A DNA stretch of 64,000 nt from a bacterium (GCA_016702305.1 JADJEH010000001.1:508368-572367); one strand, 5' to 3'; positions 28,705 to 59,533 are shown, counted from the first letter of the stretch. The notes: generated by a model from the sequence alone, not told the origin. Numbers and translations: made by a program.

Positions 28705-28828
28705 CAATGGTTATTTGCGGCGGTCGCGCGCCTTCAACGTTAGCCGGACAAACTGTCCGAAAAGCACGAGCTTGGCAGGAAAATCGGCAGTTCCGCGCGA
28801 AACGATGAAGCAGAATGCGATGTTTCCG

Positions 28829-28843
28829 TGGCATGCACTTTGC
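28829..28843 (+). promoter_or_regulatory. sigma-54 (-24/-12) promoter upstream of pilB
   Basis: TGGCAT-gcact-TTGCG, spacing identical to TGGCAC-N5-TTGC consensus; ~70 nt upstream of pilB ATG. Confidence 0.55.
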
Positions 28844-28913
28844 GAACAATTGGCGTGATGCAAAGGCAATCTCCCGCAACGTTGGAAACGGTAAACAGCA
28901 GGCACAAGCATTC

Positions 28914-30611: not shown

Positions 30612-30613
30612 TC

Positions 30614-31528
30614 ATGAGCACAAGGATCGGCCTCTACTTAGAGCGCCTTACGCTGGATGATCTGTTGTTCCTTGAGAGTGAGCTGGAGCGGCGCAAAGAA
30701 AAGTACCGGCGCCAGCATGTCGTGATGGCCGTCCAGAGCGAACAACGACTGCTGACGACACTGAAGCGTGATAAGCTGACGATCATCGCAAAGGAGATGC
30801 GCCGCTACGTGCATGAATGCGCCGTGGCCGGCAATGGCGTAGTCTTGGCGTTCTCGCCGGAATCGTCGCTCATGCTGTTTCGTGACGTAAAGAGCGCGGC
30901 TGCCACCGCCGCGCGGTTGCTCACGACGCTCGCCGATTTGAATGGCAGACTCAAAGCAGAAACATCCAGCATTGCTCTGAAGTTGGGAATGGCGACCGGA
31001 AGTGATGTACTGGCTGCGGGTTCGATGCGCTCGGTGCGACAGTCAGTGCTCGTTAAGCGCGCCGGGCATTGCGCGTGGAAGGCGCCGGCGGGAAGCATGC
31101 TGATGGACGAACACTGTGCGCAGCAATGGGAGCCGCGCAACGAGGCGCTGCGCTTACCCATGGAAGTTGACGGCATTACAATCTATCGCGCAAACCCGGC
31201 GGCGACCAACAATACCACGACCGGCGCGGATGACGACCGTCTAATCGCCTACCTGGATGCTGTGGTCAGTAAAGGCATTTCCACGTTGAAATACTTCCTG
31301 CTGCGTGAAGACACCGCCGATGACGCCGAAGCCTGGACGCAATCGAATGGGCGTGCTGTAATCACGCTCGAAGGATTTGATCCAAGCACCATGAAGAACT
31401 TGTCATTCACGACACGCTGCCCGTTGAATGACTACGCGAACAAGGTGGACGCCATACGCCGGCTAATCAGCGACCGCGGCTTAGGGCTTGTAAAACACGA
31501 AGAGTCAATGCCGATTATCGCGGCCTAA
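30614..31528 (+). CDS. hypothetical protein with a degenerate nucleotidyl-cyclase-like (class III cyclase/GGDEF fold) domain lacking catalytic Asp residues
   Basis: Begins 3 nt after the pilB stop and ends 12 nt before pilT; residues ~35-170 (VVMAV..GNGVVLAFSPESSLMLFRDVKSAAATAARLL..LKLGMATGSDVLAAGSMRSVRQSVLVKRAGHC..) follow the secondary-structure spacing of a cyclase homology domain but with metal-binding Asp positions replaced. Confidence 0.45.
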   Translation: MSTRIGLYLERLTLDDLLFLESELERRKEKYRRQHVVMAVQSEQRLLTTLKRDKLTIIAKEMRRYVHECAVAGNGVVLAFSPESSLMLFRDVKSAAATAARLLTTLADLNGRLKAETSSIALKLGMATGSDVLAAGSMRSVRQSVLVKRAGHCAWKAPAGSMLMDEHCAQQWEPRNEALRLPMEVDGITIYRANPAATNNTTTGADDDRLIAYLDAVVSKGISTLKYFLLREDTADDAEAWTQSNGRAVITLEGFDPSTMKNLSFTTRCPLNDYANKVDAIRRLISDRGLGLVKHEESMPIIAA

Positions 31529-31540
31529 TGAGGAGATAGA

Positions 31541-32653
31541 ATGTCCGCTAAACTTGACATACGTAAACTTCTGGAAGAGCTCATCGCGGCGCGGGGAAGC
31601 GACTTGCACATCGCCGTGAATAGTCCGCCGCGCGTGCGAGTTGACCAGCAGCTCGTACCGCTGAAGTACGATGCACTTTCACCGGATGACTGCCGCGTAT
31701 TGGCGTACAGCGTACTGACCGACAAGCAGCAGAAAAAGCTCGAGTTGGACTACGAAGTGGACTTTGCTTTCGGAATTGAAGGGTTGTCTCGTTTTCGCGG
31801 CAACATCTTCTTCCAGCGCGGCTCGTTGACGACGGTAATCCGCGCGATTCCGTTCACGATTCCGCAAATGGAGCAGCTTAGACTGCCGCGCATTTGCCAA
31901 GCGTTTCCGAATAAACCCAAGGGATTAGTGCTTGTCACCGGTCCGACAGGATCGGGAAAGTCCACGAGCCTGGCCGCCGTGATTGACCGCATTAACACCG
32001 AACGCCCCGTGCACATCATTACTATTGAAGATCCAGTTGAGTATGTGCATTCTCATAAGCGAGCGTTGGTCAATCAGCGCGAAGTCGGCGCAGATACGAA
32101 GAGCTTCGCAACCGCATTGAAGTTTGTGCTGCGCCAAGACCCGGACGTTATCCTCGTCGGTGAAATGCGCGACCAGGAAACGATTCAGGCGGCGCTTACC
32201 GCAGCGGAGACCGGGCACTTGGTGTTTGCGACATTGCACACCAATTCGGCGACCGAATCCGTCAACCGTATTATTGACGTGTTTCCACCACACCAGCAAG
32301 GGCAGGTGCGCGCACAGCTCTCCATGTCACTGGAGGCTGTCATGACGCAAAAACTAATACCCAAGAAATCCGGGCCTGGCGTTGTGTTGGCTGCGGAGGT
32401 GATGATCTTAACACCGGCAATTCGCGCGTTGATTCGCGAGAATAAGGTGCACGAAATGTACGGTTTGCTGCAAGTGTCGCAGAAATACGGAATGCAAACC
32501 CTGAACATGTCGTTATTCGATCTGGTTATGACCAAGCAAATCAGCCCAGAGCGCGCACTGATGGTGGCGAATGTGCCGGAAGAGTTGCAGCGCATGCTGG
32601 GATTGACTCCGCAGCCCGTGCAAGCTGGCGGATCACGCATTCAGCCGAAGTAA
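31541..32653 (+). CDS. pilT: twitching motility (pilus retraction) ATPase PilT
   Basis: LHI....PP..R..G, Walker A GPTGSGKSTSLAA, EDPVEY, LRQDPDVILVGEMRD, His box, 370 aa. Confidence 0.93.
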   Translation: MSAKLDIRKLLEELIAARGSDLHIAVNSPPRVRVDQQLVPLKYDALSPDDCRVLAYSVLTDKQQKKLELDYEVDFAFGIEGLSRFRGNIFFQRGSLTTVIRAIPFTIPQMEQLRLPRICQAFPNKPKGLVLVTGPTGSGKSTSLAAVIDRINTERPVHIITIEDPVEYVHSHKRALVNQREVGADTKSFATALKFVLRQDPDVILVGEMRDQETIQAALTAAETGHLVFATLHTNSATESVNRIIDVFPPHQQGQVRAQLSMSLEAVMTQKLIPKKSGPGVVLAAEVMILTPAIRALIRENKVHEMYGLLQVSQKYGMQTLNMSLFDLVMTKQISPERALMVANVPEELQRMLGLTPQPVQAGGSRIQPK

Positions 32654-32670
32654 ACAGGGAGACTTAGACC

Positions 32671-33873
32671 ATGCCAGTCTTTGTATATAATGGCCGTGGC
32701 GCAGGCGCCCGACCCGTGTCGGGTGAAATTGAGGCGTCTGACAAGCAGGAGGCTATGTCGAAACTGCGGCAGCGGCGCGTCGTCGTTCAAGACCTGCGCA
32801 GCAAGCCGAAAGATCTCAAAGTCGGTGGAATGGGCGGCGGCGTCGGGACGAAGGACCTCAAGATCTTCGCACGTTTGTTCGGCACGATGATCAATGCCGG
32901 CTTGCCGATCGATCAGTGCTTGCAAATCCTTGTGGACCAGATGCAAAACAAGAGATTCAGACGCACAATCGCTGAAGTGCATAATCAGGTCGCAGGCGGC
33001 GAATCGCTCTCAGAGGCGATGAGCAAGCACAAAGCGGTGTTCGACAACTTGTTTGTGCACATGGTTGCCGCAGGTGAAACGGGCGGCGCGTTGGCCATGG
33101 TTTTCAATCGTCTGGCAATTTATCTCGAAAAGGCGGATGCGCTAAAACGCAAAGTCAAAGGCGCGATGATCTATCCTGCCGTGATCGCATGCGTTGCCCT
33201 AAGCGCGACGATATTCCTGCTGATCAAGGTCATCCCGGTGTTTGCAGGAATGTTCAAAGATCTTGGCGCGGAATTGCCGAAGCCGACTCAATTCGTGCTG
33301 GCATTGTCAGACCTCGTGCAGAAGACATTTCTACCCGGCATGGGTGTTTTGATTATCGCGTTCTTTGTCTTTCGCAAGTGGCACAAAACTGCCAACGGCA
33401 AAGCGACGGTAGATAAGTTTCTATTGAAAACGCCGGTGATCGGCGGTGTGATCCGCAAAACGGCCGTCGCTCGATTCACGCGCACGCTCGGCGTGCTGAT
33501 CTCGTCGGGCGTTCCGATTCTACATGGGCTTGAGATCACGGCCAAGACGGCGGGTAACACGGTGATTCAAAAGGCGGTGGATCGAGTGCGCAAGGAAGTT
33601 AGCGAAGGTCGCAACATCACACAGCCGCTCATGGAGACCGCTGTCTTCCCGGCGATGGTGTGCCAGCTCATCGCTGTTGGTGAGCAGACCGGACGACTCG
33701 CGGAAATGCTTGAGAAGATCGCGGATTTTTATGACGAAGAAGTTGACGCCGCGGTCGCCGCGATGACGTCCTTGATCGAACCCGTTGTCATCGTGCTGAT
33801 GGGCGCGGTCATCGGCGGTATGCTTGTGTCCATGTACTTGCCGATGTTTGACATGATCGGCGCGATTAAGTAA
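32671..33873 (+). CDS. pilC: type IV pilus inner-membrane platform protein PilC (GspF family)
   Basis: Two T2SSF repeats (..MINAGLPIDQCL.. and ..LISSGVPILHGL..), 3 TM segments, 400 aa. Confidence 0.92.
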   Translation: MPVFVYNGRGAGARPVSGEIEASDKQEAMSKLRQRRVVVQDLRSKPKDLKVGGMGGGVGTKDLKIFARLFGTMINAGLPIDQCLQILVDQMQNKRFRRTIAEVHNQVAGGESLSEAMSKHKAVFDNLFVHMVAAGETGGALAMVFNRLAIYLEKADALKRKVKGAMIYPAVIACVALSATIFLLIKVIPVFAGMFKDLGAELPKPTQFVLALSDLVQKTFLPGMGVLIIAFFVFRKWHKTANGKATVDKFLLKTPVIGGVIRKTAVARFTRTLGVLISSGVPILHGLEITAKTAGNTVIQKAVDRVRKEVSEGRNITQPLMETAVFPAMVCQLIAVGEQTGRLAEMLEKIADFYDEEVDAAVAAMTSLIEPVVIVLMGAVIGGMLVSMYLPMFDMIGAIK

Positions 33874-33905
33874 ACCCAGAACTGCAGGACGCGGAGAATA
33901 CATAC

Positions 33906-35279
33906 ATGCTACGAGAGAAAATCCTGCTGGTGGATGACGAGCCCGGTCTGGCGTCATTCCTTGAAGAGGTCGTGCGAGAGGAAGGATTTCGGGTGCGTAA
34001 AGCGCAATCGGCGGCCGAGGCTCTGAGTGCGCTGGAGGAAGAGGCCTTCCAGCTCGTGATCACCGACTTGCGCATGCCGGAAGTTGACGGGCTTGAGCTG
34101 TTGCGCCGGGTGCGGGAGCGTGATCCGCAGCTCGGGGTTATCGTCATGACGGCCTTCGCCTCACTCGAGACGGCGGTGGAGGCCCTGCGGCTCGGCGCCA
34201 TGGACTACATCACAAAGCCGCTGCACGTTCAGGAGATTCAGGTCGTGCTGCGGAAGGCGGTTGAGAGCCTTGACCTCAAACGTGAGAATCGGCGGCTCAA
34301 GGCAAAGCTAAGTGAGGAGAGCGGAGAGCCTCGCATCGTGGGCAGTTCCATGGAGACGCGTTCGATGCTTGAGCTTGTGCGCCGAGTGGCGCCTTCGGAT
34401 TCGACCATTCTCATTACGGGAGAATCGGGAACCGGCAAGGAACTCATTGCACAGGTCCTGCATTTCTTTTCGGAACGGGCACGCGGTGAATTCGTGACTG
34501 TGAACTGCGCGGCGCTGCCGGATACCTTGCTGGAGAGTGAGCTATTCGGCCATCGGCGCGGCAGTTTCACCGGAGCGGTGCGCGACAAGGACGGCCTTTT
34601 TAAAGTCGCGAGCGGCGGAACGCTGTTTCTGGATGAAATCGGTGATATGTCGGCCGCGCTGCAAGTGAAGCTGTTGCGAGCCTTGCAAGAGCGTGAAGTG
34701 CTGCCGATTGGCGCGACGAAACCGGTGAAGATTGATGTGCGGGTCATTGCTGCTACAAATGCCGATCTCGAGCGCAAACAGCAAACGGGTGAGTTTCGGC
34801 CGGACCTATATTATAGGTTGTCGGTGATTCCCATTCATATTAAGCCGCTGCGCGAGCGCACGGGCGACATTCACGAGCTGGCAGCGTTCTTCCTGGAACG
34901 TGCGTGCAAGAAGGCGGGTGTGAGCACGCGCCGCTTCGCTCCCGAGACGATGCAGCGACTGATGCAGTATAAGTGGCCCGGCAACGTGCGTGAGCTGGAG
35001 AATACGATTGAGCGCTTGGTGATTTTGAGTGACCATGAAGTCATTGAGCCAGCGAGCCTGCCGGAGCGTTTGGGCGGCGGAGTCGCTGCCGCACCGTCGC
35101 AGCCGTATGCAAGCTCTGCAAGTCGTACACTTGATGATATGGAGCGGACCTACTTGCTGCAGGTGCTCGAAGAGTCCGGTTGGCAGAAAAAACGTGCTTC
35201 GGAGATTTTGGGAATTGATCCATCAACCATCTACCGCAAATTGCAACGTTACGGAATTAAGCCTCCGGCAGGTGTATGA
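33906..35279 (+). CDS. pilR: sigma-54-dependent response regulator (NtrC family; PilR-like)
   Basis: REC domain (LLVDDEPG..D..MP..DG), AAA+ sigma-54 activator domain with GESGTGKELIA and GAFTGA motif (GSFTGA), C-terminal Fis-type HTH. Confidence 0.9.
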   Translation: MLREKILLVDDEPGLASFLEEVVREEGFRVRKAQSAAEALSALEEEAFQLVITDLRMPEVDGLELLRRVRERDPQLGVIVMTAFASLETAVEALRLGAMDYITKPLHVQEIQVVLRKAVESLDLKRENRRLKAKLSEESGEPRIVGSSMETRSMLELVRRVAPSDSTILITGESGTGKELIAQVLHFFSERARGEFVTVNCAALPDTLLESELFGHRRGSFTGAVRDKDGLFKVASGGTLFLDEIGDMSAALQVKLLRALQEREVLPIGATKPVKIDVRVIAATNADLERKQQTGEFRPDLYYRLSVIPIHIKPLRERTGDIHELAAFFLERACKKAGVSTRRFAPETMQRLMQYKWPGNVRELENTIERLVILSDHEVIEPASLPERLGGGVAAAPSQPYASSASRTLDDMERTYLLQVLEESGWQKKRASEILGIDPSTIYRKLQRYGIKPPAGV

Positions 35280-35402: not shown

Positions 35403-35417
35403 TGGCACATGTGTTGC
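35403..35417 (+). promoter_or_regulatory. sigma-54 (-24/-12) promoter of pilA
   Basis: TGGCAC-atgtg-TTGCT, exact consensus, ~65 nt upstream of pilA ATG; matches the adjacent sigma-54 activator. Confidence 0.8.
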
Positions 35418-35900: not shown

Positions 35901-35917
35901 TCCCTGACAGCCTTGAA

Positions 35918-35956
35918 GAGAGACCCGCGGTCGTGAGACCGCGGGTTTCTCTTTTG
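35918..35956 (+). terminator. rho-independent terminator after pilA
   Basis: GAGAGACCCGCGGTC-gtga-GACCGCGGGTTTCTCTTTTG. Confidence 0.8.
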
Positions 35957-36092: not shown

Positions 36093-36107
36093 TGGCACAT
36101 GCATTGC
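36093..36107 (+). promoter_or_regulatory. second consensus sigma-54 promoter, upstream of fis-like gene and giant Ig-repeat protein
   Basis: TGGCAC-atgca-TTGCA at 36093; sequence closely resembles the pilA promoter core (TGGCACATG.....TTGC). Confidence 0.75.
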
Positions 36108-36194
36108 ACTCGTAAGCTTGGGCTCGAATCGGATTTTCCCCGACCGTCGAGCCGAGCAAATTTTCAGTTCAGTCAATGAATAGGGTAGACGCTT

Positions 36195-36464
36195 TTGAAC
36201 GCATTAGCAACCCTCGGAGATACGTCGAATGATGTGAGTGCATCTGCTTGCGGTAGCGACCCGCAGGACCAGATGCAGATCTCATTGCCGTCGGAGACGG
36301 TGAGCATCAAACAGGCGCTGGCACGAGTCATTCCGGAAGTGGAGAGTGCGCTCATTAAACGCGCGCTCGAGCTGACAGGAAACAATCGAACCCGGGCCGC
36401 GAAGATTCTGGAGATTTCTCACCGCTCGCTACTCTACAAGCTCAAAAGTTACAATTGTGGATAA
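36195..36464 (+). CDS. small Fis-family DNA-binding protein (HTH_8)
   Basis: TTG start per ORF track (or internal ATG giving 63 aa); C-terminus ..IKRALELTGNNRTRAAKILEISHRSLLYKLKSY is a Fis/NtrC-type HTH. Confidence 0.6.
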   Translation: MNALATLGDTSNDVSASACGSDPQDQMQISLPSETVSIKQALARVIPEVESALIKRALELTGNNRTRAAKILEISHRSLLYKLKSYNCG

Positions 36465-36483
36465 AGTGCAAGGAGTGCATGTG

Positions 36484-39400
36484 ATGCAGCGCCGTTTGCC
36501 ATTCAGTTTCTGGTTGCCCATGGGCACGTTGCTCAGCGTTGCCCTGTGGTACGGTTGCGAACAGAAGGGAGATTTGAGTCCGGTGTCCTCTGCACGGGAC
36601 AATCTCGCTTTCATAGACACCATCATCATTGATCCGCCGGTTATTAGCCCATTGGGCACGGCGTGGATCGAAGCGCGTGTCGTTAACGAACAGCAGGAGC
36701 CCGCGGCCGGTGAAGATGTTCGCTTCACGGCGACGCGCGGAACGTTCGGCGAAGATGGACCTGACGTGACCATTCCCGCCGACAACTACGGCGTGGCCCG
36801 CACATTATATACGGCTCCCGCTGATACGGGCAACGTGTCCTTGCACATCGAGTTGGTCAGCATGCAGACGGCGCAATCGCGCTCGCTGCCAGTTCAAGTC
36901 GGTGCGGGATCGCAAGACGGCCTGTTAAGCGTAAGCGCTGACGAAGACACGCTGTTCGCGGACAACGGTGCTTCCACCACGCAGGTCCGGGCTCGAGTGC
37001 GCAATGCGCTGAATAACCCCATCGGCGGCGCGGAAGTTACCTTCTCGACGTCGCGCGGCGTGATTACTTCACCGAGCGTCACCGACGCGCAGACCGGCGC
37101 GGCCACCGCCACGCTAACGTCAACAGAAGCGATCGGGCGCGCCATGGTGGTTGCAACGTACAATGGAAATTCAGACACGGTCTACGTGGAATTCCTCGAA
37201 CCTTTCGAGGCTTCGGCGATTCACGTGAACACGTCCCTGTCATCGCTGACGGCGGGCATGGATTCGTCGGTCATTAGCGCGCGGGTCATTGGCGAAGACG
37301 GCCAAACACTGCGTACAAATGTCATGGTGACGTTTGCCGCCAACGCCGGATCGTTCACCGCACAGGCTGTGACAACGGTGAATGGTGTGGCGACGACGAC
37401 CTATCGCGCTCCAGTCACGGCCGGTCCGGTGACCATTGTAGCTTCAACCGGTACCGTTACGGGCGAAGCGGACGTTACCGTTAATCCCGGTGCGTTAGCG
37501 TCGTTGACACTGACAACGGGCGCCGACACCCTCGACGCTGACAATGCCAGCGAAACCATGGTCCGTGCACTCGCTCGTGACACCTACGGGAATCCCGCGC
37601 TGCCCGGAACCATTGTAGCGTTCAGCAGCGTCAATGGTTCGATTACCGAATCGGCATCCACCGACGCTTCCGGATACGCCAACGCGACGTTCCGCGCGGG
37701 CTTGAATTCAGGCAATGCCACAGTCACGGCGCTTAACGGCAGTATCGGCGGTAGTGCAGCAATCTACCTGCAGATGACCGAGGCCGAAGCTCTGAATATG
37801 ACGGTTACACCCCGCCAACTTGTGGCCGACGGCCAAAGCACTGCGATACTGCGTGCGCAAGTCCTTGACGGCGATAATCGCCCCGTGTCCAACGGAACGA
37901 TTGTTACTTTTACGTCGGAGCTCGGTCAGCTCGATGGCACAGGCGCCATTCATGATGGTGGAAAGCAGAGCCCGACTTGGAAGAATTCCGGTAACAGCGC
38001 CTTGGCGCGCACGCAAACTGCGCGGCTGCACGGCCACAACAAGGCCATGCGTGGCCCGGAACGTCGCGGCGATCCGGCCATGAGTGTTTTCAACGCTGTG
38101 ACGCAAGACGGCTATGCCGTGGCGACGCTGACGAGTTCTACGACGGCGGCCAACGACTTGATCTCGGCCGTGGTCAACGGGCTGACGGACGAAGAGACCG
38201 TTACATATAGTGCAGGAACGGCGGCGAGCGTGGAAGTGACCCCTGCGGATGCAGATTTGCCCGCGGACGGTGCATCGAGCACGCCGGTTGTCTGTCGCGT
38301 CTATGACGCTTTTGGTAATCCGCTGGGCGGCGGTGTCGCGATTGCCGTGACGAGCACGATCGGTACGCTGTTGCCGACGTCCGGCTTCACCAATGCGAGC
38401 GGCACGTTCACCACGAATTTGACGAGCGCGCGCCAGGTGGGTAACTGCGCGATCGTGGCCAATGCAGGCGCGGCGAGCGGCTATGCCGAAGTAGATTTCA
38501 CGGCACCGGAAGTCGCCGGACTGGTGCTTACCAGCACATCATCGTCCATTCTAGCGGATGGATACTCGTCAACGGTCGTCGTAGCGACGGTGCGTGACCA
38601 GCTCGGTCTCCCCGTCAGCGGACGCACTGTGGCCTGGTCCGCCGGCAATGGCATCGGCACACTGCAAGTGATTACCGGCGTCACCGACGCGAACGGCACG
38701 GTTAGCGCAGAGTTCTTCAGCGGTGCGTCAAACGTTGACGCGTCCCAAGTTGTGGATGCCGCTGCGGAAGGCGAAGAAGGATCCTACGCCATCACGATGC
38801 GCGGCGTTACCGTGCTCGTCAACGTGGAAGCGGACAATCTGCCCGCCAACGGCCAGGCGACTACTGACGTTCATGCAACGATACGTGAAACATCGAGCGG
38901 TTTGGCTGTGCCGAGCGCACCGGTCCGCTTCGCGACGACGAACGGCTCGATCGAGCAGTTCGCGGAGACGAACGAAAGCGGCGTGGCGACGGCTGTCTAT
39001 CAGGCGGGCAATGACGCAGGTGAGGTTCATATCAGCGCATCGTTTGGCGACACGCTTCGTGCACAGTCCATGATCACGCTGACGAACACCGACGCCGAAC
39101 AGATTGTCGTGACGATGGGCGATTCGGAACTATTAGCCAACGGTGAATCGTCCACGGAGGTCAGCGCATTCGTGACCGATGAGGGCGGCTATCCGGTGGA
39201 AAATGTCGAAGTCGTGTTCACGTCCGTTGCCAACGGTTCGTTCGAACCGGTGACGACCTTTACTGACGCTGCTGGCTTTGCGCGCTCTGAATTCATCGCC
39301 GTGGCGTCGGAGAACGATCTTGTCGCTCCGATTGACGTCGCCATCGAACGAAGCGCAATTCAGGATACCTTGACATTGCGCGGCGTGACTTTGCATGCGT

Positions 39401-42400
39401 ACAGTGACGCGACGCTGTTGCCCGCGAATGGCGCGGCGACCGCGACGATAACGGTCAACCTCCGCGAGACGAGCAGCACGATCGCGATATCGGGTGCAAC
39501 AATCCTGTGCGGCGCGAACATGGGTTCGATTGCCGCGAGCGGCATCACCAGTGAAGCCGGTGTTGCAACCTTCACGTATACTTCGGGAGTTGAAGTGGGC
39601 GACGCGAGTATCATCGTGCGCTACGGCAACCAGTTGCGTGATACGGTGACGATCTCTATGTTCTCGCCCTCGCCATCCGGATTGGACCTTGAGTCCGATC
39701 AGATGTCGTTGTTGGCCGACGGTCAGAGCTCGGCGAATCTGAGCTGCCGACTGTTGGATCAATCGGGCAGTCCGATTGCGAACACGCAGATTGTCTGGAG
39801 CGTGAGCGGTCCGGGCAGCCTGACGGATGGCATGAGCTACACGAACTCCGACGGCTATGCGACGAATGTTTACAACAGCGCAGGCCGCGCCACGGATGCG
39901 ACGACCATTGTGCGGGCGCATTCGCAGTCCGCGTCTGATTCCGTGTCGCTTGCGTTGCGTGGCGTGACGGTCGTCTCATCTGCACAATTCAATGCGATGC
40001 CGGCAAACGGCATTTCAAGCAACACGATTACGGCTCAAGTTCGTGAGACAACCAGTCTCGTTGCGGTGTCGGGACGAGACGTGACGTTTGGCACGAGCCT
40101 CGGTTCCATACCGAACACGGCTGTTACGAACTCGTCGGGTATGGCCACCGTGAATCTTGTAGCCGGAAGCACGAGCGGCAATGCGCTGGTCGTGTGCACG
40201 ATGGGTCCGCAACTTGGTGATTCGGTGATGGTCAACATGTATGCGCCAACGGCGCAGAACGTGGCGGTTGTCCCGCAGACCAATACGGTGCGTGCCGACG
40301 GATTAAGCAGTGTACCGGTTACGGCCACGGTCAGCGACGCCATGGGTGTACCATTGGCCGATGCGACCATCACCTGGACGGCAAGTGGAATCACTTTCAC
40401 GCCGGTGACGACCGTGACCGGACCCGACGGCGTGGCGATGCTGAATTTCGCTCCGGCGGGCCGTTCGACCAATCTGAGTACTACCTTGACTGCGGCTGCC
40501 GGTACGGCGCAAGGCACAACCGCGATTACGCTGCGCGGCGTCACAGTGACGACGACGGCGATTCCGGACATGGTCATTGCGGACGGCAACTCGACCTCAG
40601 AGATTCGCGTGCATGTTTACGAGACCGTTTCGCAGATCGCGATTCCTGAAGCGACGGTCTATTTCGGGACAAATCCCGGTACGATACCGCAATCGGCTGA
40701 AACGGATGCGAGCGGCGTCGCGTCGGTAAACCTTGAGGCTTCAACGACGACTGGCACCGCCACGGTAACGGCAACGTATGGTCAGACGCTTACTGCGCAG
40801 ACCAGTGTCCTGTTTGCCGCTTCGACGCCTACCACGCTTTCGTTGACGGCATCGCCGACGATTCTGTTTGCTGACAACAACTCGGCTTCAACGCTGACCG
40901 CGAATGTGACGGACCAGAACGGCAACCCGGTGCCCGATGGCACGCAGGTACGATTCAGCATTCCGCCGCAATCAGGATCGCTCGAGAATCTGCGGACTAC
41001 AGTCGGCGGCGTGGCGAGCAATTCGTTGACGTCCAGCTCGAGTCCTGACACGTTCTATGTCGCAGCGTGGGCCGAGGATAACCCGGTCGTGCGCGACAGC
41101 GTTCAAATCATCTACCGCGTCGGCGATCCGTCTGTAGTGATCATGTCGGCGATGACCGATAGCTTGCTGGCGAACGGCATCGCAACTGACAGCATCACCG
41201 CACGGGTGACGGATGCCGTGGGGCACCCGCTGCCCAATGTGGAAGTGCAGTTCAACGCCACCATAGGCAACATCACGGCCAGCCGCGTTACGAACGCACA
41301 GGGCAACGCGACCGTACCGTTTAGTTCGTCGCAAACGGGCACATCCATTGTGACGGCCCGCGCCGGGTCGGCGGTGGCGAGTTACAACATCTTCCTGTTG
41401 CCCGGCCTGCCGAACAGCATCCAGTTGACATTCCTGCCGAATTCGGTTGGCGTGCGCGGAAGCGGACGCAACGAAACGCTGTTGATTACGGCGACCGTCA
41501 ACGATGCGAACAACAATCCAGTCGTGGATGGAACGCCCGTGACGTTTAACATCAACAACTCCCCCGGCGGCGGTGACTTCCTGTCGAGCGGGAACGCGAT
41601 TCCGACGATTAACGGTCAAGCGACGGTCGCCTACAATTCGGGCACCGTGAGCGGTACGGCCCGCGTGCGAGCGGTCTGCGCCGGCGTGAGCGCCGTATCC
41701 ACGGAAATTTTGATTCACGCTGGACCGCCGTATATCGAGAACATTGGCGACGGCTGTCTGTCGAGTCACATGGCAATCGGCGCGAGTCCGTGCAATATGT
41801 TCGGCATGGATATCGTGGGCGAGAGCGTCCAGTTGGTTTGCCTCGTGGGCGATCGTTATAACAACCCCGTGACGCCGGGTACCGCCGTGTACTTCACGAC
41901 ATCCGGCGGCGTAGTGACCACAGCCACAGGTTATACCGACTCGGCCGGCTTTGCGCGCGTCACGCTGTACAGCGGCAATCCGCTGCCGACCGTGAGCCGT
42001 TGGCTGAACACCTTGACCGATCCGAATCTGGGCACAACGGTGCTTTGTACCGACGTGCCGGATCAGAATGGCATGGCCAAGGTCATGGTAAAGACGGCCG
42101 GTGTTGACGCCACGGGCGACAGCGTCTGGGTGTGGGCCACGACAAACGTCGTGTTCGATTACAGCCAGCCGATCCTGAACCTCCGAGAAGTGACTGTCAA
42201 CGGCGACCCGGACGAGCGCACACTGTTCATCGGCGAAAATGCGTTGATTCGCTTCGCACTGTATGACAGCAACTACTGGCCGATGGTGTCGGGTACGACC
42301 GTGACCTTCAGCGCGAGCGCAGGCAACGTCTACCCGAGTGAAATCGAAATCGGCTGTCCGGGCGACACCACCTACACGGTCAGCTTCTTCAACAACATGA

Positions 42401-42552
42401 CGACGAACGATGACGACGCCGCCACCCCGGTGCTGATCAACGTTTCCGCAGAGTACGGCGCGGCCTATGCGTTCACTGAGACGTTCACGTTGCGCGCGGC
42501 ATTCAGCGGTGCGGCGCCACCGCCGTCCCGCGATGATGAGACCATTCAATAA
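36484..42552 (+). CDS. giant (2031 aa) surface lipoprotein built from ~20 tandem bacterial Ig-like (Big_1/invasin-type) domains
   Basis: Lipoprotein signal MQRRLPFSFWLPMGTLLSVALWYGC; ~95-aa modules repeating ..LLANG.S.T.V.A.V.D..GNP.....V.F....G.....T.TDA.G.A.A.F... about 20 times; C-terminal non-repeat ~350 aa. Confidence 0.8.
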   Translation: MQRRLPFSFWLPMGTLLSVALWYGCEQKGDLSPVSSARDNLAFIDTIIIDPPVISPLGTAWIEARVVNEQQEPAAGEDVRFTATRGTFGEDGPDVTIPADNYGVARTLYTAPADTGNVSLHIELVSMQTAQSRSLPVQVGAGSQDGLLSVSADEDTLFADNGASTTQVRARVRNALNNPIGGAEVTFSTSRGVITSPSVTDAQTGAATATLTSTEAIGRAMVVATYNGNSDTVYVEFLEPFEASAIHVNTSLSSLTAGMDSSVISARVIGEDGQTLRTNVMVTFAANAGSFTAQAVTTVNGVATTTYRAPVTAGPVTIVASTGTVTGEADVTVNPGALASLTLTTGADTLDADNASETMVRALARDTYGNPALPGTIVAFSSVNGSITESASTDASGYANATFRAGLNSGNATVTALNGSIGGSAAIYLQMTEAEALNMTVTPRQLVADGQSTAILRAQVLDGDNRPVSNGTIVTFTSELGQLDGTGAIHDGGKQSPTWKNSGNSALARTQTARLHGHNKAMRGPERRGDPAMSVFNAVTQDGYAVATLTSSTTAANDLISAVVNGLTDEETVTYSAGTAASVEVTPADADLPADGASSTPVVCRVYDAFGNPLGGGVAIAVTSTIGTLLPTSGFTNASGTFTTNLTSARQVGNCAIVANAGAASGYAEVDFTAPEVAGLVLTSTSSSILADGYSSTVVVATVRDQLGLPVSGRTVAWSAGNGIGTLQVITGVTDANGTVSAEFFSGASNVDASQVVDAAAEGEEGSYAITMRGVTVLVNVEADNLPANGQATTDVHATIRETSSGLAVPSAPVRFATTNGSIEQFAETNESGVATAVYQAGNDAGEVHISASFGDTLRAQSMITLTNTDAEQIVVTMGDSELLANGESSTEVSAFVTDEGGYPVENVEVVFTSVANGSFEPVTTFTDAAGFARSEFIAVASENDLVAPIDVAIERSAIQDTLTLRGVTLHAYSDATLLPANGAATATITVNLRETSSTIAISGATILCGANMGSIAASGITSEAGVATFTYTSGVEVGDASIIVRYGNQLRDTVTISMFSPSPSGLDLESDQMSLLADGQSSANLSCRLLDQSGSPIANTQIVWSVSGPGSLTDGMSYTNSDGYATNVYNSAGRATDATTIVRAHSQSASDSVSLALRGVTVVSSAQFNAMPANGISSNTITAQVRETTSLVAVSGRDVTFGTSLGSIPNTAVTNSSGMATVNLVAGSTSGNALVVCTMGPQLGDSVMVNMYAPTAQNVAVVPQTNTVRADGLSSVPVTATVSDAMGVPLADATITWTASGITFTPVTTVTGPDGVAMLNFAPAGRSTNLSTTLTAAAGTAQGTTAITLRGVTVTTTAIPDMVIADGNSTSEIRVHVYETVSQIAIPEATVYFGTNPGTIPQSAETDASGVASVNLEASTTTGTATVTATYGQTLTAQTSVLFAASTPTTLSLTASPTILFADNNSASTLTANVTDQNGNPVPDGTQVRFSIPPQSGSLENLRTTVGGVASNSLTSSSSPDTFYVAAWAEDNPVVRDSVQIIYRVGDPSVVIMSAMTDSLLANGIATDSITARVTDAVGHPLPNVEVQFNATIGNITASRVTNAQGNATVPFSSSQTGTSIVTARAGSAVASYNIFLLPGLPNSIQLTFLPNSVGVRGSGRNETLLITATVNDANNNPVVDGTPVTFNINNSPGGGDFLSSGNAIPTINGQATVAYNSGTVSGTARVRAVCAGVSAVSTEILIHAGPPYIENIGDGCLSSHMAIGASPCNMFGMDIVGESVQLVCLVGDRYNNPVTPGTAVYFTTSGGVVTTATGYTDSAGFARVTLYSGNPLPTVSRWLNTLTDPNLGTTVLCTDVPDQNGMAKVMVKTAGVDATGDSVWVWATTNVVFDYSQPILNLREVTVNGDPDERTLFIGENALIRFALYDSNYWPMVSGTTVTFSASAGNVYPSEIEIGCPGDTTYTVSFFNNMTTNDDDAATPVLINVSAEYGAAYAFTETFTLRAAFSGAAPPPSRDDETIQ

Positions 42553-42563
42553 GCGAGGCATAC

Positions 42564-43313
42564 ATGAAGATCAGATACATTTCCATTACCTGCGCAATGC
42601 TGCTGCTCACTTCCGCAGCAACCGCAATGGTCGGAGGTCCGCTGTTTTGCGTGGGCAATAAGGTCACAAGCATGACGGTTGAAGTCGAGCGAGTTGACTA
42701 CAGTGTGCCGATGTCCGCCGACTTGAGCGGGCGCGGCGGCAGCCAGACACAACGGCTATTCCTTACCGGCAGCTATGGCTTGGCGGAATTCGTTGACGCG
42801 CACGTGAAACTCGGTGCCGCGGACTTGAACTTCGACGAGTTCAACAACGGCTTCTCGCCCTTCGCGAGTGATCCGTCGTTCGCGTGGGGCGCGGGCCTGA
42901 AGGCGGGCATTCCGTTCAACGAAAAGCTACAATTGAACGCGAGCTGTGATTACATCGGCTTCAATGCCGAAGGCGAAGTGTCGCGCACAGGCCGCACGAT
43001 TTCGAACAAGTACTTGTGGCAGGAACTTCGTCCAGCGGTCACGCTCGGTTACAGGATTTCGGACGTAACGCCGTATGTCGGCGTGAGCAAGACTTTCCTG
43101 ACCGGAAACCGCGAGTTCACGGTGGCCTATAACGGCAACATCCTTGACGCGGCGTCCGGAAGCGAAACTTATACAGATGGAGAACAGCCGATCAGTCCGC
43201 TTGTTGGTCTCGAATGGCATCTTCCCGACGGCTATTCGCTGACAGGCGAAGCGGCCAGCGGCGAGGACGGAAACTTCGGAATCTCGATTGGCTTGTCGCA
43301 AGCCTTGCGCTAA
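42564..43313 (+). CDS. putative outer-membrane beta-barrel protein
   Basis: Signal peptide MKIRYISITCAMLLLTSAATA; alternating hydrophobic beta-strand pattern with G/Y/F-rich turns; 249 aa; 12 nt after the giant protein. Confidence 0.45.
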   Translation: MKIRYISITCAMLLLTSAATAMVGGPLFCVGNKVTSMTVEVERVDYSVPMSADLSGRGGSQTQRLFLTGSYGLAEFVDAHVKLGAADLNFDEFNNGFSPFASDPSFAWGAGLKAGIPFNEKLQLNASCDYIGFNAEGEVSRTGRTISNKYLWQELRPAVTLGYRISDVTPYVGVSKTFLTGNREFTVAYNGNILDAASGSETYTDGEQPISPLVGLEWHLPDGYSLTGEAASGEDGNFGISIGLSQALR

Positions 43314-43337: not shown

Positions 43338-43718
43338 ATGAATATGAAACGAGCACTACGAAAATGGCAGGCCGGCATTAGCCTGTTAGAGGTACTGGTC
43401 ACGACACTCATCGTGACCGGCGGTCTGGTCGTTGTGATGGCGTCGTTCGTGGGAATTGCCAAATCGAATCGCTACGTTGAAAAGATGGAGACCGCGAACA
43501 ATCTGCTGCGACTCGAGATGGAAAACTTGCGCAACAACGACTACGGCGCGATCCAATCGTTGTCCGGCGACTACAACGAAAGTTTCTCGGATCAGCCGGA
43601 CTTCAGGCGCAGAATCACGGTGACAGACCTTGGCAGCGTAAAACGCGTTACCGTTCAGATCTTCTTCAATGACGATCACCATGTTGCCGAAGCCACGACG
43701 ATGGTGGCGAATCTCTAA
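43338..43718 (+). CDS. pilV: minor pilin / pseudopilin, PilV-like
   Basis: Prepilin N-terminus WQAGISLLEVLVTTLIVTGGLVVVMAS (G-x-x-x-x-E); 126 aa. Confidence 0.7.
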   Translation: MNMKRALRKWQAGISLLEVLVTTLIVTGGLVVVMASFVGIAKSNRYVEKMETANNLLRLEMENLRNNDYGAIQSLSGDYNESFSDQPDFRRRITVTDLGSVKRVTVQIFFNDDHHVAEATTMVANL

Positions 43719-44510: not shown

Positions 44511-46172
44511 ATGAACATGAAACGAAGTCATGGCGGCTCGAAGGGCGGCAAGGCAGGGCAAAGTACGCGCCAGCAGGGCATGATTATGCTGGCCGCGGTA
44601 GTTATGCTGGCTGGTCTGATGTTTGTGGCAACGACTTCCTCGCTGAACTCGATTGGTACAACAAAAGTTGAAACGACTGCGCTGGATGAAACCCGGACGT
44701 TCTATGCGGCGGAGGCCGCCGTCGAATGGGGTGTTGATCAGTTGCGCGACTACCTTATGGTCAATCTGGACCCGGAAACCGCAGAGCTGGATTCACTGCC
44801 GCTCCCGGACATGGATGGTTATGTGTACGACCTCTACGAAGTCGAACGTGTTGGAGTGACGACGCAAGAAGTCATCACGGCAGGTGACTATCAGGGCCTG
44901 ATCGGTTTTGTTAATCGGTACGGCATCACAGCGCGCGCGCAGTCCAACCGATCCTCGACGACCATTGCGCGCGAAATCCAACATCAGTTCATTCCGCTGT
45001 TTCAATTCGGCGTGTTCTATGATAAGGACCTTGAAATATACCCGGGCCCTGAAATGACTTTTGAGGGTCGAGTGCATACAAATGCAGACCTATTCATGGG
45101 TGCTGAGACCGGCATCATCTGCAATTCGTATGTTACATCGGGCGGTCAATACTGGCACCACCGCAAGGATGGCGCGCACGTTGACCCGCCGGGCTATGTG
45201 CGCATCATGAACAACCTTGGCGCTTACGAAGATGTGTGGCGGGGCGGATATTGGTTGGACAATCGCCAGGCGGATTGGGCGAATCAGGCATTGACTGTGT
45301 GGGGCGGACAAGTACGCGACAGCGCGCACGGCATGTCAACGCTCCGGTTGCCGCTGCCGCCCGCCGCTGACCAGCACGAAATCGTCGAGCGCGCGGACAC
45401 GCTCAATGACGGCGCTCAAGAGATTGCCGCAAAGTACTGGTACAAGGCCGGTATGCGTTACGTAGACGGAGTGCTGACGGACAGTGCGGGAACGGTGCTG
45501 GCGAATCCGGGCTACTTCGTCTATACGGTCAACAAGTTCACGGACGCTCGTGAAGGTCGGAGAATGGACGTTGTTGATGTTGACATAGGTGCGATCCGGG
45601 CCGCCGGAGTGTATCCGGCAAACGGCATCATCTACATCAGCGATTACCGCGGTGCGGACAAAGCCGTACGCATCAAGAATGCAGCACAACTCCCGCCGAA
45701 CGGGCTAACGATCGCGACCGATCTGCCGCTTTATATCTGGGGAAACTACAACACCGTCAGCAAGCGTGGTTCGTCGCTGCTTTGCGATGCGATCACCTTC
45801 TTGTCGCCGGCCTGGCTTGACGCAAACTCTGCGTTACCGCTGAACAGCCGGGTACCCAGTACCATGACGGTGAATGCCTGCATAATGACCGGTCATGTCT
45901 CGAGCGTTGACGGCGGAGCCTATAGCGGCGGTCTGGAAAATCTGCTGCGTTTCCTCGAAAAGTGGAGCTCGCAATGGGTGAACTACCGGGGGAGCATGAT
46001 AGACCTGTGGTATAGCCGCTACAACGTTGCGCCATGGGTGTATGGTGGCTACTATACGGCTCCAAAACGTAACTGGGGATTTGATACCGACCTACTTGAT
46101 CCGGACAATTGGCCTCCGGGAACTCCGCGCGTACACACAGTGCAACGCGGCGCGTGGCGGCAGATAAGCTAA
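44511..46172 (+). CDS. pilX: PilX N-terminal-domain protein (large, possibly PilY1-like tip factor)
   Basis: RQQGMIMLAAVVMLAGLMFVATTS is the PilX_N pattern; 553 aa globular C-terminal region. Confidence 0.55.
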   Translation: MNMKRSHGGSKGGKAGQSTRQQGMIMLAAVVMLAGLMFVATTSSLNSIGTTKVETTALDETRTFYAAEAAVEWGVDQLRDYLMVNLDPETAELDSLPLPDMDGYVYDLYEVERVGVTTQEVITAGDYQGLIGFVNRYGITARAQSNRSSTTIAREIQHQFIPLFQFGVFYDKDLEIYPGPEMTFEGRVHTNADLFMGAETGIICNSYVTSGGQYWHHRKDGAHVDPPGYVRIMNNLGAYEDVWRGGYWLDNRQADWANQALTVWGGQVRDSAHGMSTLRLPLPPAADQHEIVERADTLNDGAQEIAAKYWYKAGMRYVDGVLTDSAGTVLANPGYFVYTVNKFTDAREGRRMDVVDVDIGAIRAAGVYPANGIIYISDYRGADKAVRIKNAAQLPPNGLTIATDLPLYIWGNYNTVSKRGSSLLCDAITFLSPAWLDANSALPLNSRVPSTMTVNACIMTGHVSSVDGGAYSGGLENLLRFLEKWSSQWVNYRGSMIDLWYSRYNVAPWVYGGYYTAPKRNWGFDTDLLDPDNWPPGTPRVHTVQRGAWRQIS

Positions 46173-46184
46173 AGGAAGATAAGT

Positions 46185-47339
46185 ATGAACCTGTCCTTAA
46201 AGAGCGGGAAGAAACCTGATTCGAAATCGCGCCTCTTGCTGCGCAGCGGCAAGTGGAAAGCCGCGCTGCCGTTCTATGAAGAACAGGCGCGAGCGGACGA
46301 GCAAGACTACAGCAAGTTGAATCTGCTGGGTGATATACAATTCCGCGCCGGCGACTCGACTGCCGCCGCTTCAAGCTGGTTGCGCGTCATGGACGGCTTC
46401 GCTCAGGAAAGCCTGCATGAGAACGTGCTGGGCGTCGGCCGCAAGATTGCCAAGCGTTGTCCGGAGGAAACGTCCGTTCACCTGGTCCTCTCCGACGCCT
46501 ATCTTGGACTGGAGTATTACGCCGACGCAATCAGTTCGTTTCGCAGTTACGTGAAGCTCTGCAAGCAGGCAACGAGCGCGGAAAAGAAGAACTGGTTCCG
46601 CCGTGTGTTGACGATTGACATTGCGCACCCGCATCTGCTGGAAGAAGTACAGCAGATCTACGAGGAATGTGCCTTTGAAGACATCGAGCTCGAGCGCGAG
46701 GTTAAGGCGTGGGTGAAGCGGATGTTTGAGGCCCAAGAGTACAAGCCCGAAAGCGAGGAAATCCTGGTCGCTGAAGAGAATAACTTCGAATCGCCAATGC
46801 TTGCCGTCGAGACTGATGGCTTGATGACGATAGACACAGGTTGGTCAGGGCAAGGAGCTGATTTCATCCGGCAGGATGCGATCTCGTACGATTCTCCCGT
46901 CCCCGCCTATGCGCCGCAAGACGCTGCAAGTTCTTATGTTGCCGCAGCCGACACGCCCGAAGAAGATATCCCCGATGGCCAGGGCAAGGACCATTTCGAT
47001 CTGGGCGTCGTCTACGCCGAAATGAAGTTGTGGGATGCTGCCATCACGGAGTTTCAGACGGCCCGGCGAGACCGCAGTATTCGCAGCAAAGCGACGATTG
47101 AGCTCGCTCAGTGCTTCAAGAACTCCAATGATCCTCATCGAGCGTTGCGACTGCTCGAGGACGAGACAGCCGTCACCGCAGCGGAAGCGGACGTTCAGGA
47201 TGATCTCAATTTCCAGATGGGCGTCCTCAATGAGACTTTGGGCAACGCCGCTGCCGCCGCCGCATGTTACGAAAAAGTCAGCGCGGAATCCCAAAATTAC
47301 GGTGAAGCCACATCGCGAGCCGCTCGCGTGCGCGCTTAA
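46185..47339 (+). CDS. TPR-like repeat protein
   Basis: Helical-repeat character (..LGDIQFRAGDSTAAASSWLRV.., ..LGVVYAEMKLWDAAITEFQTA.., ..YEKVSAES); no signal peptide; 384 aa. Confidence 0.45.
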   Translation: MNLSLKSGKKPDSKSRLLLRSGKWKAALPFYEEQARADEQDYSKLNLLGDIQFRAGDSTAAASSWLRVMDGFAQESLHENVLGVGRKIAKRCPEETSVHLVLSDAYLGLEYYADAISSFRSYVKLCKQATSAEKKNWFRRVLTIDIAHPHLLEEVQQIYEECAFEDIELEREVKAWVKRMFEAQEYKPESEEILVAEENNFESPMLAVETDGLMTIDTGWSGQGADFIRQDAISYDSPVPAYAPQDAASSYVAAADTPEEDIPDGQGKDHFDLGVVYAEMKLWDAAITEFQTARRDRSIRSKATIELAQCFKNSNDPHRALRLLEDETAVTAAEADVQDDLNFQMGVLNETLGNAAAAAACYEKVSAESQNYGEATSRAARVRA

Positions 47340-47364: not shown

Positions 47365-48474
47365 ATGGAACTCAAAGGGCTGTTGGAGATGCTGTTCGCC
47401 AAAAAGGCGTCGGACTTGCACTTGCGGGTCGGCAGCGTGCCGGTGTTGCGGATTGATGGCAATCTGTTCGGCACGCGACCGGAGCCGGTGAGCGAGCGCG
47501 AGATGACGGTGTTGTTGAATGAAGCCCTGACATCGGGTCAGTTGGAGCGCTTCCTGCGCGACAAAGAGCTTGACCTTGCGTTGACCGTTCCCGGCCATGG
47601 CCGAGTGCGCGTAAACGCCTATTTCCAAAAAGGCACTCCGGCGCTGGCTTTCCGCGCCATCAAGACGTCCATTCCAACGTTTAAAGAGCTGGGGCTTCCG
47701 CCTGCCATCGAGCGCCTGTGCTCGCAGCGCCGCGGCATCATTCTGCTTACCGGCGCCACCGGATCGGGAAAGTCCACGACGATGGCCTCGATGATCGAGC
47801 ACATCAATCAAACGCGCAGCCTCAATATCCTGACGATTGAAGATCCGATCGAGTTCGTGTTCTCGAACAAAAAGTCGCTGATCGCTCAGCGCGAGGTGCT
47901 GATTGACACGGAGTCGTTTCTGGCGGCTCTGACGCATGCGCTGCGCGAAGACCCGGACATTATCATGGTCGGCGAGATTCGCGATCAAAATACCATGAAG
48001 ATCGCATTGCAAGCCGCGGAGACCGGCCACCTTGTGCTGACGTCTCTGCACACCCTGAATGCGGTTGAGGCTATCAACCGCATTATCTCGTTCTTCCCGT
48101 TGAATGAACAGGCGCAGATCCGCGCGATGCTCTCCGGCGCCTTGCAAGCCGTGATTTCACAGCGGCTCGTCGGCCGCAAAGATGCGCGGGGCCGCGTACC
48201 GCTGGTGGAGATCATGATCAGCACCGCCGCCATCCGTGAGTGTCTCACGCAGACTGACAAGATGAACCTGATTCACGGACTTATCGAGGACGATCAGGGC
48301 ACTCACGGTATGCAGACATTCGACCAATCCATTTTGAATCTGTTTAATCTCGGACTGATCTCAATTGAGACAGCCCTTGAAAACGCGAATAATCCGAATG
48401 ACCTCGAAATGGCCATACGCGGCATTAAGTCGTCCGGATCCAGACTTGCGGAGGCGGCCCATGGAGTCGCATAA
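47365..48474 (+). CDS. pilU: second PilT-family retraction ATPase (PilT2/PilU-like)
   Basis: Walker A GATGSGKSTTMAS, EDPIEF, LREDPDIIMVGEIRD, His box LTSLHT; 369 aa. Confidence 0.88.
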   Translation: MELKGLLEMLFAKKASDLHLRVGSVPVLRIDGNLFGTRPEPVSEREMTVLLNEALTSGQLERFLRDKELDLALTVPGHGRVRVNAYFQKGTPALAFRAIKTSIPTFKELGLPPAIERLCSQRRGIILLTGATGSGKSTTMASMIEHINQTRSLNILTIEDPIEFVFSNKKSLIAQREVLIDTESFLAALTHALREDPDIIMVGEIRDQNTMKIALQAAETGHLVLTSLHTLNAVEAINRIISFFPLNEQAQIRAMLSGALQAVISQRLVGRKDARGRVPLVEIMISTAAIRECLTQTDKMNLIHGLIEDDQGTHGMQTFDQSILNLFNLGLISIETALENANNPNDLEMAIRGIKSSGSRLAEAAHGVA

Positions 48475-59454: not shown

Positions 59455-59533
59455 CGCGCCCAGTTTGTCGGTTTGCCCCGGGGTTATTCTAAACGGGAAA
59501 GGAATAACCGTGTTTTGTCTGAGGAGTTTGCGC

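Follow-up and report, generated by a model that had tools for sequence, protein, structure and literature searches.

Within a 64,000-nucleotide stretch of bacterial DNA (GCA_016702305.1 JADJEH010000001.1:508368-572367; hereafter the window), a type IV pilus gene cluster contains, between the major pilin gene pilA and the minor pilin genes, a gene for a giant lipoprotein built of tandem immunoglobulin (Ig)-like domains and, directly downstream, a gene for an outer-membrane beta-barrel. Both follow a sigma-54-type promoter, designated P2, and a short helix-turn-helix (HTH) gene, here called the stub (Table 1). Our favoured interpretation, to which we assign a probability of roughly 0.45, is that the giant is a fixed-length, lipid-anchored, invasin-type rod, transcribed together with the genes of the pilus tip and displayed or anchored by way of the barrel encoded beside it. 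The coordinates and descriptions given for this region (36093-43313) in a first-pass annotation made from the sequence alone proved accurate, and the position of the giant and barrel between pilA and the minor pilins is real and conserved in 12 distinct orthologous loci down to a barrel identity of 41%. These loci, which belong to the AABM5-125-24 or "Calditrichaeota"-labelled lineage (lineage A) and have barrels of 41%-75% identity, share one gene order: pilR, pilA with its terminator, P2, a slot for an activator gene, a Big_1 lipoprotein of ~2,000 amino acids (aa), the barrel, three pilin-like genes, a TPR protein gene and a second pilT (pilT2), continuing to pilMN.

The giant matches Big_1 (3.5e-141, 16 stretches) and Invasin_D3 (3.9e-108, 13 stretches), and an iterated repeat hidden Markov model resolves 18 strong and about four weaker Ig domains from residue 57 to residue ~1957; together with the lipobox, these matches uphold the description of a giant lipoprotein of about 20 tandem Big_1-like domains. 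The likely start codon, ATG 36484, is preceded by AAGGAG, and the DNA from the stop codon of the stub through this ATG is nearly invariant among relatives. The signal peptide ends in a lipobox, LW[YFL]GC-EQKGD (...SVALWYG-C-EQKGD in the window), that fits the PROSITE PS51257 pattern when checked manually; the cysteine and its flanks are invariant in all five orthologues inspected, as is the segment C-EQKGD[LI]SP past the signal peptide. The lipobox and its invariant flanks therefore identify the giant as a lipoprotein with a constrained tether of ~20 residues. The signal for surface-lipoprotein export in Bacteroidota is C-X-K-(D/E)2 or S-D-D-D-D directly past the lipidated cysteine (PMC5080379); the corresponding residues, C-E-Q-K-G-D in the giant and C-S-N-K-G-S, C-G-K-K-G-S, C-G-D-D or C-E-D-S-D in relatives, are polar or acidic and differ from that motif. 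The Ig domains average 26% identity to each other (range 14-42%), a repeat search found no DNA tandem repeats in the gene, and the array is best regarded as old, stable and non-recombining. Past the cysteine the rod measures 1,987-1,999 residues in 10 orthologues that are 51-76% identical. Modelling of the last 402 aa with AlphaFold2 gave Ig-like beta structure throughout, followed by a short disordered tail (pLDDT 90.6), for which the best fold matches in the Protein Data Bank (PDB) are FdeC, InvD, invasin, InvE and intimin D0-D1; further matches, to the S-layer proteins SbsC and EA1 and to macroglobulin-type Ig stacks, are generic only. The N-terminal 12-strand barrel domain PF11924 is not found in the chain (no match at E<=0.01), which instead begins with the signal peptide and lipobox.

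One interruption of the array, a K/R/S-rich loop in Ig domain 5, is seen in 10 of 11 aligned orthologues, the remaining frame (locus L016) stopping at 421 aa so that the region is not covered. The loop is variable in sequence and keeps the motif RGP[DE]-RRG; a frameshift artefact was rejected as its origin because the K/R-rich stretch is found in every orthologue that covers the region. The early stop in L016 (about 3979 onward) reflects an error of assembly or else a true disruption of the gene.

The assignment of 42564-43313 to an outer-membrane barrel, for which a soluble protein would be the alternative, is borne out by three kinds of evidence. The product scores 34.7 bits against OMP_b-brl (PF13505; gathering cut-off 28.7), its AlphaFold2 model is a closed barrel (pLDDT 83, pTM 0.76), and Foldseek matches it with probability 1.0 to the outer-membrane barrels Pla/OmpT, NalP, EstA, EspP, FapF and OpcA. 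The gene starts 11 nucleotides (nt) past the stop codon of the giant, and the mature N-terminus, MVGGPxFCVG, is nearly invariant in the family. A word-based search for the barrel returned only 28 clusters, all from unclassified or "Calditrichaeota"-labelled metagenome-assembled genomes (MAGs), and just seven of 185,579 reference species carry it, one of which is named HK-STAS-AABM5-4; these carriers therefore point to an AABM5-125-24-like lineage.

The pairing of lipoprotein and barrel extends beyond this lineage. A profile search of 1.84 billion representatives yielded 106 barrel relatives, from which five remote homologues were looked up and four gave usable neighbourhoods; in all four (P0032, P0034, P0037 and P0039) the barrel lies directly past a Big_1 protein, of 680+, 697, 852 and 1,199 aa. 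At one of these distant loci (L017) the neighbours of the pair are housekeeping genes, the promoter in front of it is of the sigma-70 type (TTGACA-17-TAGAAT) with no sigma-54 motif, and no pilus genes were found within 10 kb upstream or ~9 kb downstream. The two Big_1 partners that could be read (L017 and L018) carry a lipobox and a similar tether, C-x-x-K-G-[SD]. Since the pair is directly adjacent in remote homologues and occurs in L017 without pilus genes, lipoprotein and barrel constitute an autonomous two-gene module that the lineage of the window recruited into its pilus cluster. Co-conservation of adhesin, barrel and pil genes thus holds across lineage A, with the pairing strongly supported by conserved adjacency; the further expectation that the pair be linked to pilus genes with a sigma-54 promoter is borne out in the 12 orthologous loci and fails in distant L017.

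The C-terminal 400 residues of the giant are also homologous to a family of ~700-aa lipoproteins, whose length stays at 660-702 aa in two further lineages (B and C) despite strong sequence divergence. In lineage B the lipoprotein gene lies directly past gspH-like, pilM, pilN, pilO, a 504-aa gene and pilQ in 27 of the 27 loci with enough upstream DNA. At one such locus (L020, 9862-10001) an apparent single-base frameshift in the assembly splits off the signal peptide, the other frame reading ...AIFCLSG-C-DSSSS as a lipobox.

Exact matches to the sigma-54 -24/-12 element TGGCAC-N5-TTGC (11 bases) occur twice in the 64 kb, at 35403 (P1, 66 nt 5' of the pilA start codon) and 36093 (P2), where simple base counting of our own gives a chance expectation of ~0.03. 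A search allowing one mismatch showed no enrichment (five found versus 5.96 expected), and the shuffle control from which this expectation derives applies to the one-mismatch search only, not to the exact-match count. Both exact sites are on the + strand, between genes, and found in 12 of 12 orthologous loci. P2, which lies 190-235 nt past the pilA stop codon in each of them, has the GG at -24, GC at -12, canonical spacing and position upstream of a same-strand gene that are expected of a sigma-54 promoter, so that the TGGCAC-N5-TTGCA element proposed ahead of the HTH, giant and barrel genes stands. Its reach was probably underestimated when it was said to precede three genes. The gaps between genes are only 9-25 nt through the minor pilins and beyond (24 nt between barrel and first pilin-like gene), a terminator scan found no convincing terminator in them, and P2 is the only conserved promoter seen for the minor pilins; because of these short gaps and the lack of a convincing terminator, the minor pilin genes most likely belong to a long operon driven by P2. 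Upstream, the hairpin of the pilA terminator is retained in relatives with altered stem and loop sequence, and directly behind it lies the inverted repeat TTGCA-ACA-TGCAA, a candidate enhancer (upstream activating sequence) for P2 that is invariant or almost so across the clade of the window, loci without an activator in the slot included. The basal clade lacks it and carries another palindrome instead.

The stub had been read as a small Fis-type gene, and this reading does not hold. It aligns by tblastn only with residues 376-456 (the 81 C-terminal residues, 54% identity) of a second NtrC-family activator, EBP2, that is encoded whole at the same position in relatives, and is thus the leftover DNA-binding tail of that activator and not an independent Fis-like regulator. 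Neither the Walker A motif nor the GAFTGA loop of the AAA+ sigma-54 interaction domain is present in the 89-aa open reading frame (ORF), which holds HTH_8 only; with 26.2 bits against the cut-off of 99 of NCBIfam NF001659, it shares only the HTH_8 domain with Fis. The locus preserves a decay series. The basal clade (L001, L003/L004 and L016) encodes a complete REC-AAA-HTH activator there, 454-457 aa long; L005/6, L008, L009, L010, L011 and L014 have a shorter AAA-HTH form (306-327 aa) that lacks the receiver domain; the window has the HTH part only; and tblastn detected no activator in the slot of L007 and L012. A tree of the giant proteins orders these states as stepwise reductions, the final step having occurred twice, independently. 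All EBP2 proteins keep GESGTGK and GAFSGA. In the window, gapped DNA alignment places a deletion directly past P2, and by coordinate subtraction L011 has ~0.7 kb more DNA between P2 and the stop codon; the HTH-coding DNA is well preserved in the window and decayed in L007 and L012. In the receiver-less loci L008, L009, L010, L011 and L014, TTCATGGG is conserved ~10 nt past the -12 element of P2 (+10 to +20); it could be a leaderless start or merely a conserved leader, gene callers placing the start ~100 nt further on.

Whether the stub is made as a protein can be argued both ways. That it is a dead remnant is possible and, in our judgement, rather unlikely: it arose by loss of the AAA+ part, the same region has decayed in two relatives (L007 and L012), and the start codon is uncertain, with TTG 36195, GTG 36234 and ATG 36273 as candidates (the NCBI annotation, P0174, uses the last to give 63 aa) and ribosome-binding sites that we read as weak. 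Against this, intact HTH-only ORFs of 86-93 aa (62-68% identity) occur in other relatives in at least three divergent forms, the HTH segment of the stubs hardly differs from the one in full-length EBP2 proteins, and many differences from L011 in the stub segment are synonymous on our reading of the alignment. All EBP2 proteins and stubs share one unchanged recognition helix, ISHRSLLYKLK, whereas PilR has IDPSTIYRKLQ; for this reason the stub is predicted still to bind the EBP2 site, but it cannot activate sigma-54.

Loci with a truncated EBP2, and those without any (L007 and L012), have kept P2 intact and the ~2,000-aa gene open, so another activator must fire this promoter. PilR is the nearest candidate. 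The proposal that the pilus activator (the PilR-like protein of 33906-35279) co-regulates the adhesin is nevertheless unproven, as the module ancestrally had a dedicated activator and the recognition helices differ. A shared PilR site for P1 and P2 was rejected, since comparison of the alignments by eye gave no convincing common motif; the conserved upstream blocks, GCAATGTGTC at P1 and TTGCAACATGCAA at P2, are unlike each other. The two sigma-54 activator genes of the locus family imply that rpoN is likely to be present in the genome. A PAS-HisKA-HATPase kinase gene (pilS-like) lies directly 5' of pilR only in the basal clade with REC-containing EBP2 (L001 1-1606; L003 1-1576); in the clade of the window pilC abuts pilR and the kinase gene is not next to it (window 32671-35279). 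A single ancestor seems to have lost both the kinase and the receiver domain of EBP2.

Taken as a mechanism, our favoured interpretation would run as follows. P2 would drive a long operon comprising the degenerate regulator stub, the rod of ~20-22 domains, the barrel and then the pilus-tip (minor pilin) genes. The dedicated 10-12-strand barrel would be the outer-membrane partner that holds the rod at, or passes it to, the cell surface; in one possible topology the conserved 20-residue tether past the lipidated cysteine threads the barrel, like the linker of an inverse autotransporter split over two genes. The rod would be a long adhesin or spacer of fixed length, and its production alongside the pilus tip would serve to coordinate attachment with retraction of the pilus; the HTH-only protein would occupy the enhancer of the old activator without activating while another activator fires P2. 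For display of the adhesin on the pilus itself, which the first-pass annotation had raised, we found no support.

Comparison with known systems places the pair between several of them. The inverse autotransporters (type Ve: intimin, invasin, FdeC and InvD) likewise have a tandem Big_1/Invasin_D3 rod and a small outer-membrane barrel genetically coupled to it, but there the barrel is the N-terminal domain of the same chain, whereas here it is a separate downstream gene with no PF11924 match, and the rod opens with a lipobox and has no lectin-like tip that we could find. Lig proteins of Leptospira (LigA and LigB) are surface lipoprotein adhesins with a dozen or more tandem bacterial Ig-like domains and resemble the giant in this respect, although their domains are Big_2 and those of the giant Big_1; to our knowledge they have neither a partner barrel gene nor a link to pilus genes. 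Among barrel-less invasin-like lipoproteins the nearest published counterpart is InvL of Acinetobacter baumannii, a lipoprotein with invasin-type Ig domains, no barrel in its chain and a tie to a secretin-bearing type IV filament machine: it is a type II secretion substrate that requires the type II secretin (GspD) to reach the surface (PMC9245377). InvL differs in having 492 aa and a lectin-like end, with no partner barrel reported in the parts of that source drawn on here, and its secretin dependence is experimental whereas the link of the giant to the pilus machine is genomic only (PMC9245377). CglB of Myxococcus, the outer-membrane lipoprotein adhesin of the Glt gliding machinery, offers a parallel for such an adhesin within a motility machine (PMC9946355). 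It is, however, a von Willebrand A-domain protein and not an Ig rod, serves gliding and not pili, and is likened to the giant by description only. Small outer-membrane barrels, GltA and GltB, reportedly control the surface exposure of CglB. For the regulators, control of pilA by PilS-PilR via sigma-54 corresponds to the PilR-like activator beside pilA with its -24/-12 promoter, with the difference that here a second sigma-54 promoter, ancestrally with its own activator, controls the downstream operon and that the clade of the window has no pilS next to pilR. Fis has been proposed to descend from the C-terminal domain of NtrC (Morett and Bork 1998, reference 41 in PMC7482072), and the stub has a comparable history, being a short HTH_8 protein on its own that was once the DNA-binding tail of a sigma-54 activator; here, however, sister lineages still carry the intermediates at this locus, and the stub is no orthologue of Fis.

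The literature searched contained no account of an invasin-like lipoprotein paired with a separately encoded barrel, nor of one located within a pilus operon. The pair may be an undescribed two-gene route by which a very long Ig rod reaches the surface, in which the inverse-autotransporter principle is split, a lipid anchor replaces the covalent barrel link, the tether lies in the barrel and the whole is wired into a pilus-tip operon; in this full form we consider the idea doubtful. It matters because the display of large lipoproteins on the Gram-negative surface is only partly understood, and the conserved pairing of an invasin-type lipoprotein and a small barrel offers a candidate for a new display route, one that can be tested and that, comprising only two genes, could be tried in a model host. 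Placement in the pilus cluster, with a related family beside pilQ, suggests that the construction of a pilus machine and of a long non-pilus adhesin can be combined in one unit, a combination for which the literature searched has no description. The regulator series illustrates how a small Fis-like protein can arise from an NtrC-type activator.

Several observations weigh against a barrel-displayed adhesin. The top matches of the barrel are generic 10-12-strand barrels with a TM score of ~0.5, showing no special fold similarity to intimin/invasin barrels; a PDB search with the barrel profile found no sequence relative; and the model has 11-12 DSSP strand segments, the DSSP string not settling the strand number. 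The barrel ends in ...SQALR and not in the usual aromatic residue. Barrels in the AABM5-lineage alignment (A1) end in ...GLSQALR or a close variant, and in a wider set (A2) most have no terminal aromatic, a few ending in one (P0057 ...KF, P0061 ...SSFKF). The rod has no recognisable tip or lectin domain in the model and fold search of its last 402 aa, and its strictly fixed length is unusual among repeat adhesins. No barrel lies within 8 kb of the lineage-B family, so a barrel is not always needed, and the synteny of lineage B is conserved on both sides, unrelated and housekeeping genes included, which makes it one association and not 27. All of the genomes are MAGs from uncultured organisms.

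Export by the pilus machine is the alternative that survives best, and we rate it as unlikely. The rod would fold in the periplasm and leave through the PilQ secretin, in the way that type II secretion exports the lipoproteins PulA and InvL, with the lipid keeping it on the surface and the barrel acting as a docking or anchoring partner or having no part in export. Two kinds of link to type IV pili speak for this, the position inside the pilA/minor-pilin cluster and the position directly past pilQ in barrel-less lineage B, although the latter may be passive synteny. InvL, a barrel-less invasin-like Ig lipoprotein, provides a precedent in needing the GspD secretin for surface exposure (PMC9245377), and a secretin suits folded Ig domains better than a narrow barrel does. 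The distant pair of L017, however, has no pilus genes within the distances given above, and the association of all four informative remote barrels with a Big_1 protein argues that the barrel is the primary partner; a rod of 2,000 aa is, moreover, far larger than any type II lipoprotein cargo that we know of.

A structural role would account for the constancy of the rod, and we think it quite improbable. The protein would be a fixed-length envelope component and not an adhesin; it could form a spacer or cage, periplasmic or at the surface, that is associated with the outer-membrane complex of the pilus, or it could belong to a surface layer, and the barrel would be its membrane anchor. Strong sequence divergence has left its length invariant (~1,990 aa in lineage A, 660-702 aa in lineages B and C), and this, the ancient, non-recombining repeats, the missing tip domain and the generic fold matches to SbsC, EA1 and macroglobulin-type Ig stacks fit such a role. 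By our estimate, however, a 20-domain rod would be ~70-80 nm long if extended and could not stand upright in the periplasm; its best fold matches are adhesin passengers, and no type IV pilus machine that we know of needs such a component.

Equally improbable is the absence of any functional link to pili, the module having been inserted once with its own activator downstream of pilA, a known hot spot for accessory genes, and then carried along by synteny: the solitary module of L017, the ancestral possession of an activator (EBP2) and a promoter of its own and the broadly conserved synteny around the lineage-B adjacency agree with this, but the module lies upstream of, and tightly packed with (11- and 24-nt gaps), minor pilin genes whose only conserved promoter seen is P2, the arrangement has outlasted divergence to 41% barrel identity while EBP2 decayed, and an independent second adjacency to pilQ would arise by chance with a probability that we roughly estimate at ~0.5% or less.

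Other origins and export routes for the giant were rejected. Recent repeat expansion is contradicted by the absence of DNA tandem repeats and by domains only 14-42% identical. The giant is not type IX secretion cargo, as it has no C-terminal sorting domain (Por_Secre_tail) and its C-terminal tail varies in length among orthologues, and this short, length-variable tail also speaks against a type Va-like split in which the C-terminus of the rod would lie inside the barrel. An alpha-2-macroglobulin was dismissed because MG3/MG4 matches on the Ig domains are marginal or below threshold and there is no thioester domain and no non-Ig domain in the model; "GCEQ", which might suggest a thioester motif, contains the lipobox cysteine, and relatives carry other residues there.

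Table 1. Features of the pilA to minor-pilin interval and its regulators, in window coordinates
Feature	Position	Strand	Basis or remarks
PilR-like sigma-54 activator, REC-AAA-HTH_8	33906..35279	+	Domain search; GESGTGK and GSFTGA motifs
P1, sigma-54 -24/-12 element of pilA, TGGCACATGTGTTGC	35403..35417	+	Exact match; TGGCA[CT]-N5-TTGC in 12/12 orthologous loci
pilA, major pilin, 138 aa	35484..35900	+	N_methyl 4.9e-12, T2SSG 3e-6
Intrinsic terminator of pilA	35916..35953	+	Hairpin scan; 17-nt arms, 4-nt loop, T-run
TTGCA-ACA-TGCAA inverted repeat, candidate enhancer for P2	35954..35966	+	Directly 3' of pilA terminator
P2, sigma-54 -24/-12 element TGGCAC-N5-TTGCA, TGGCACATGCATTGCA	36093..36108	+	Exact match
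HTH_8-only stub of EBP2	36195..36464	+	HTH_8 1.1e-12; 89 aa from TTG, 63 aa from ATG 36273
Giant Big_1/Invasin_D3 lipoprotein, 2,022 aa	36484..42552	+	ORF opens at 36457 (2,031 codons); lipobox Cys codon 36556-36558
K/R/S-rich loop of ~55 aa within Ig domain 5, motif RGP[DE]-RRG	37891..38119	+	Orthologue alignment
Partner outer-membrane beta-barrel, 249 aa	42564..43313	+	PF13505; AlphaFold2; Foldseek; signal peptide ends ...ATA|MVGGP
Pilin-like gene 1, 126 aa, PilV-like	43338..43718	+	Prepilin-like N-terminus; PilV 2.9e-4, below cut-off; syntenic in all loci
Pilin-like gene 2, 256 aa	43731..44501	+	N-terminus ...GASLLEMTL...; no family match; syntenic in all loci
Large pilin-associated protein, 553 aa, PilX/HpsA-like	44511..46172	+	N-terminal hydrophobic helix; HpsA C-terminal similarity 2.7e-21, below cut-off

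The surrounding cluster encodes, from 28815 to 35279, PilB, a 304-aa protein, PilT, PilC and the PilR-like activator; the 304-aa ORF between pilB and pilT (30614-31528) has no Pfam match and an NCBIfam match at chance level only. Past the three pilin-like genes follow the TPR protein, PilT2 and other genes and, further downstream, a PilM-PilN fusion, PilO and the PilQ secretin. PilM and PilN are fused in a single 573-aa protein (51790-53511) in the window and in all relatives of the lineage. Three further products are syntenic in relatives: the TPR protein (46185-47339), with weak similarity to the C-terminus of Myxococcus SgmX; a protein (48365-49078) whose relatives show a weak PatA_N match; and a protein (49071-50255) in which MshEN and DnaA-type ATPase domains occur together. 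Directly past the pilQ region lie tandem S8 subtilases (56608-59454 and 59465-62230) with type IX C-terminal sorting domains, from which it follows that the organism has a type IX system, consistent with a lineage of the FCB group.

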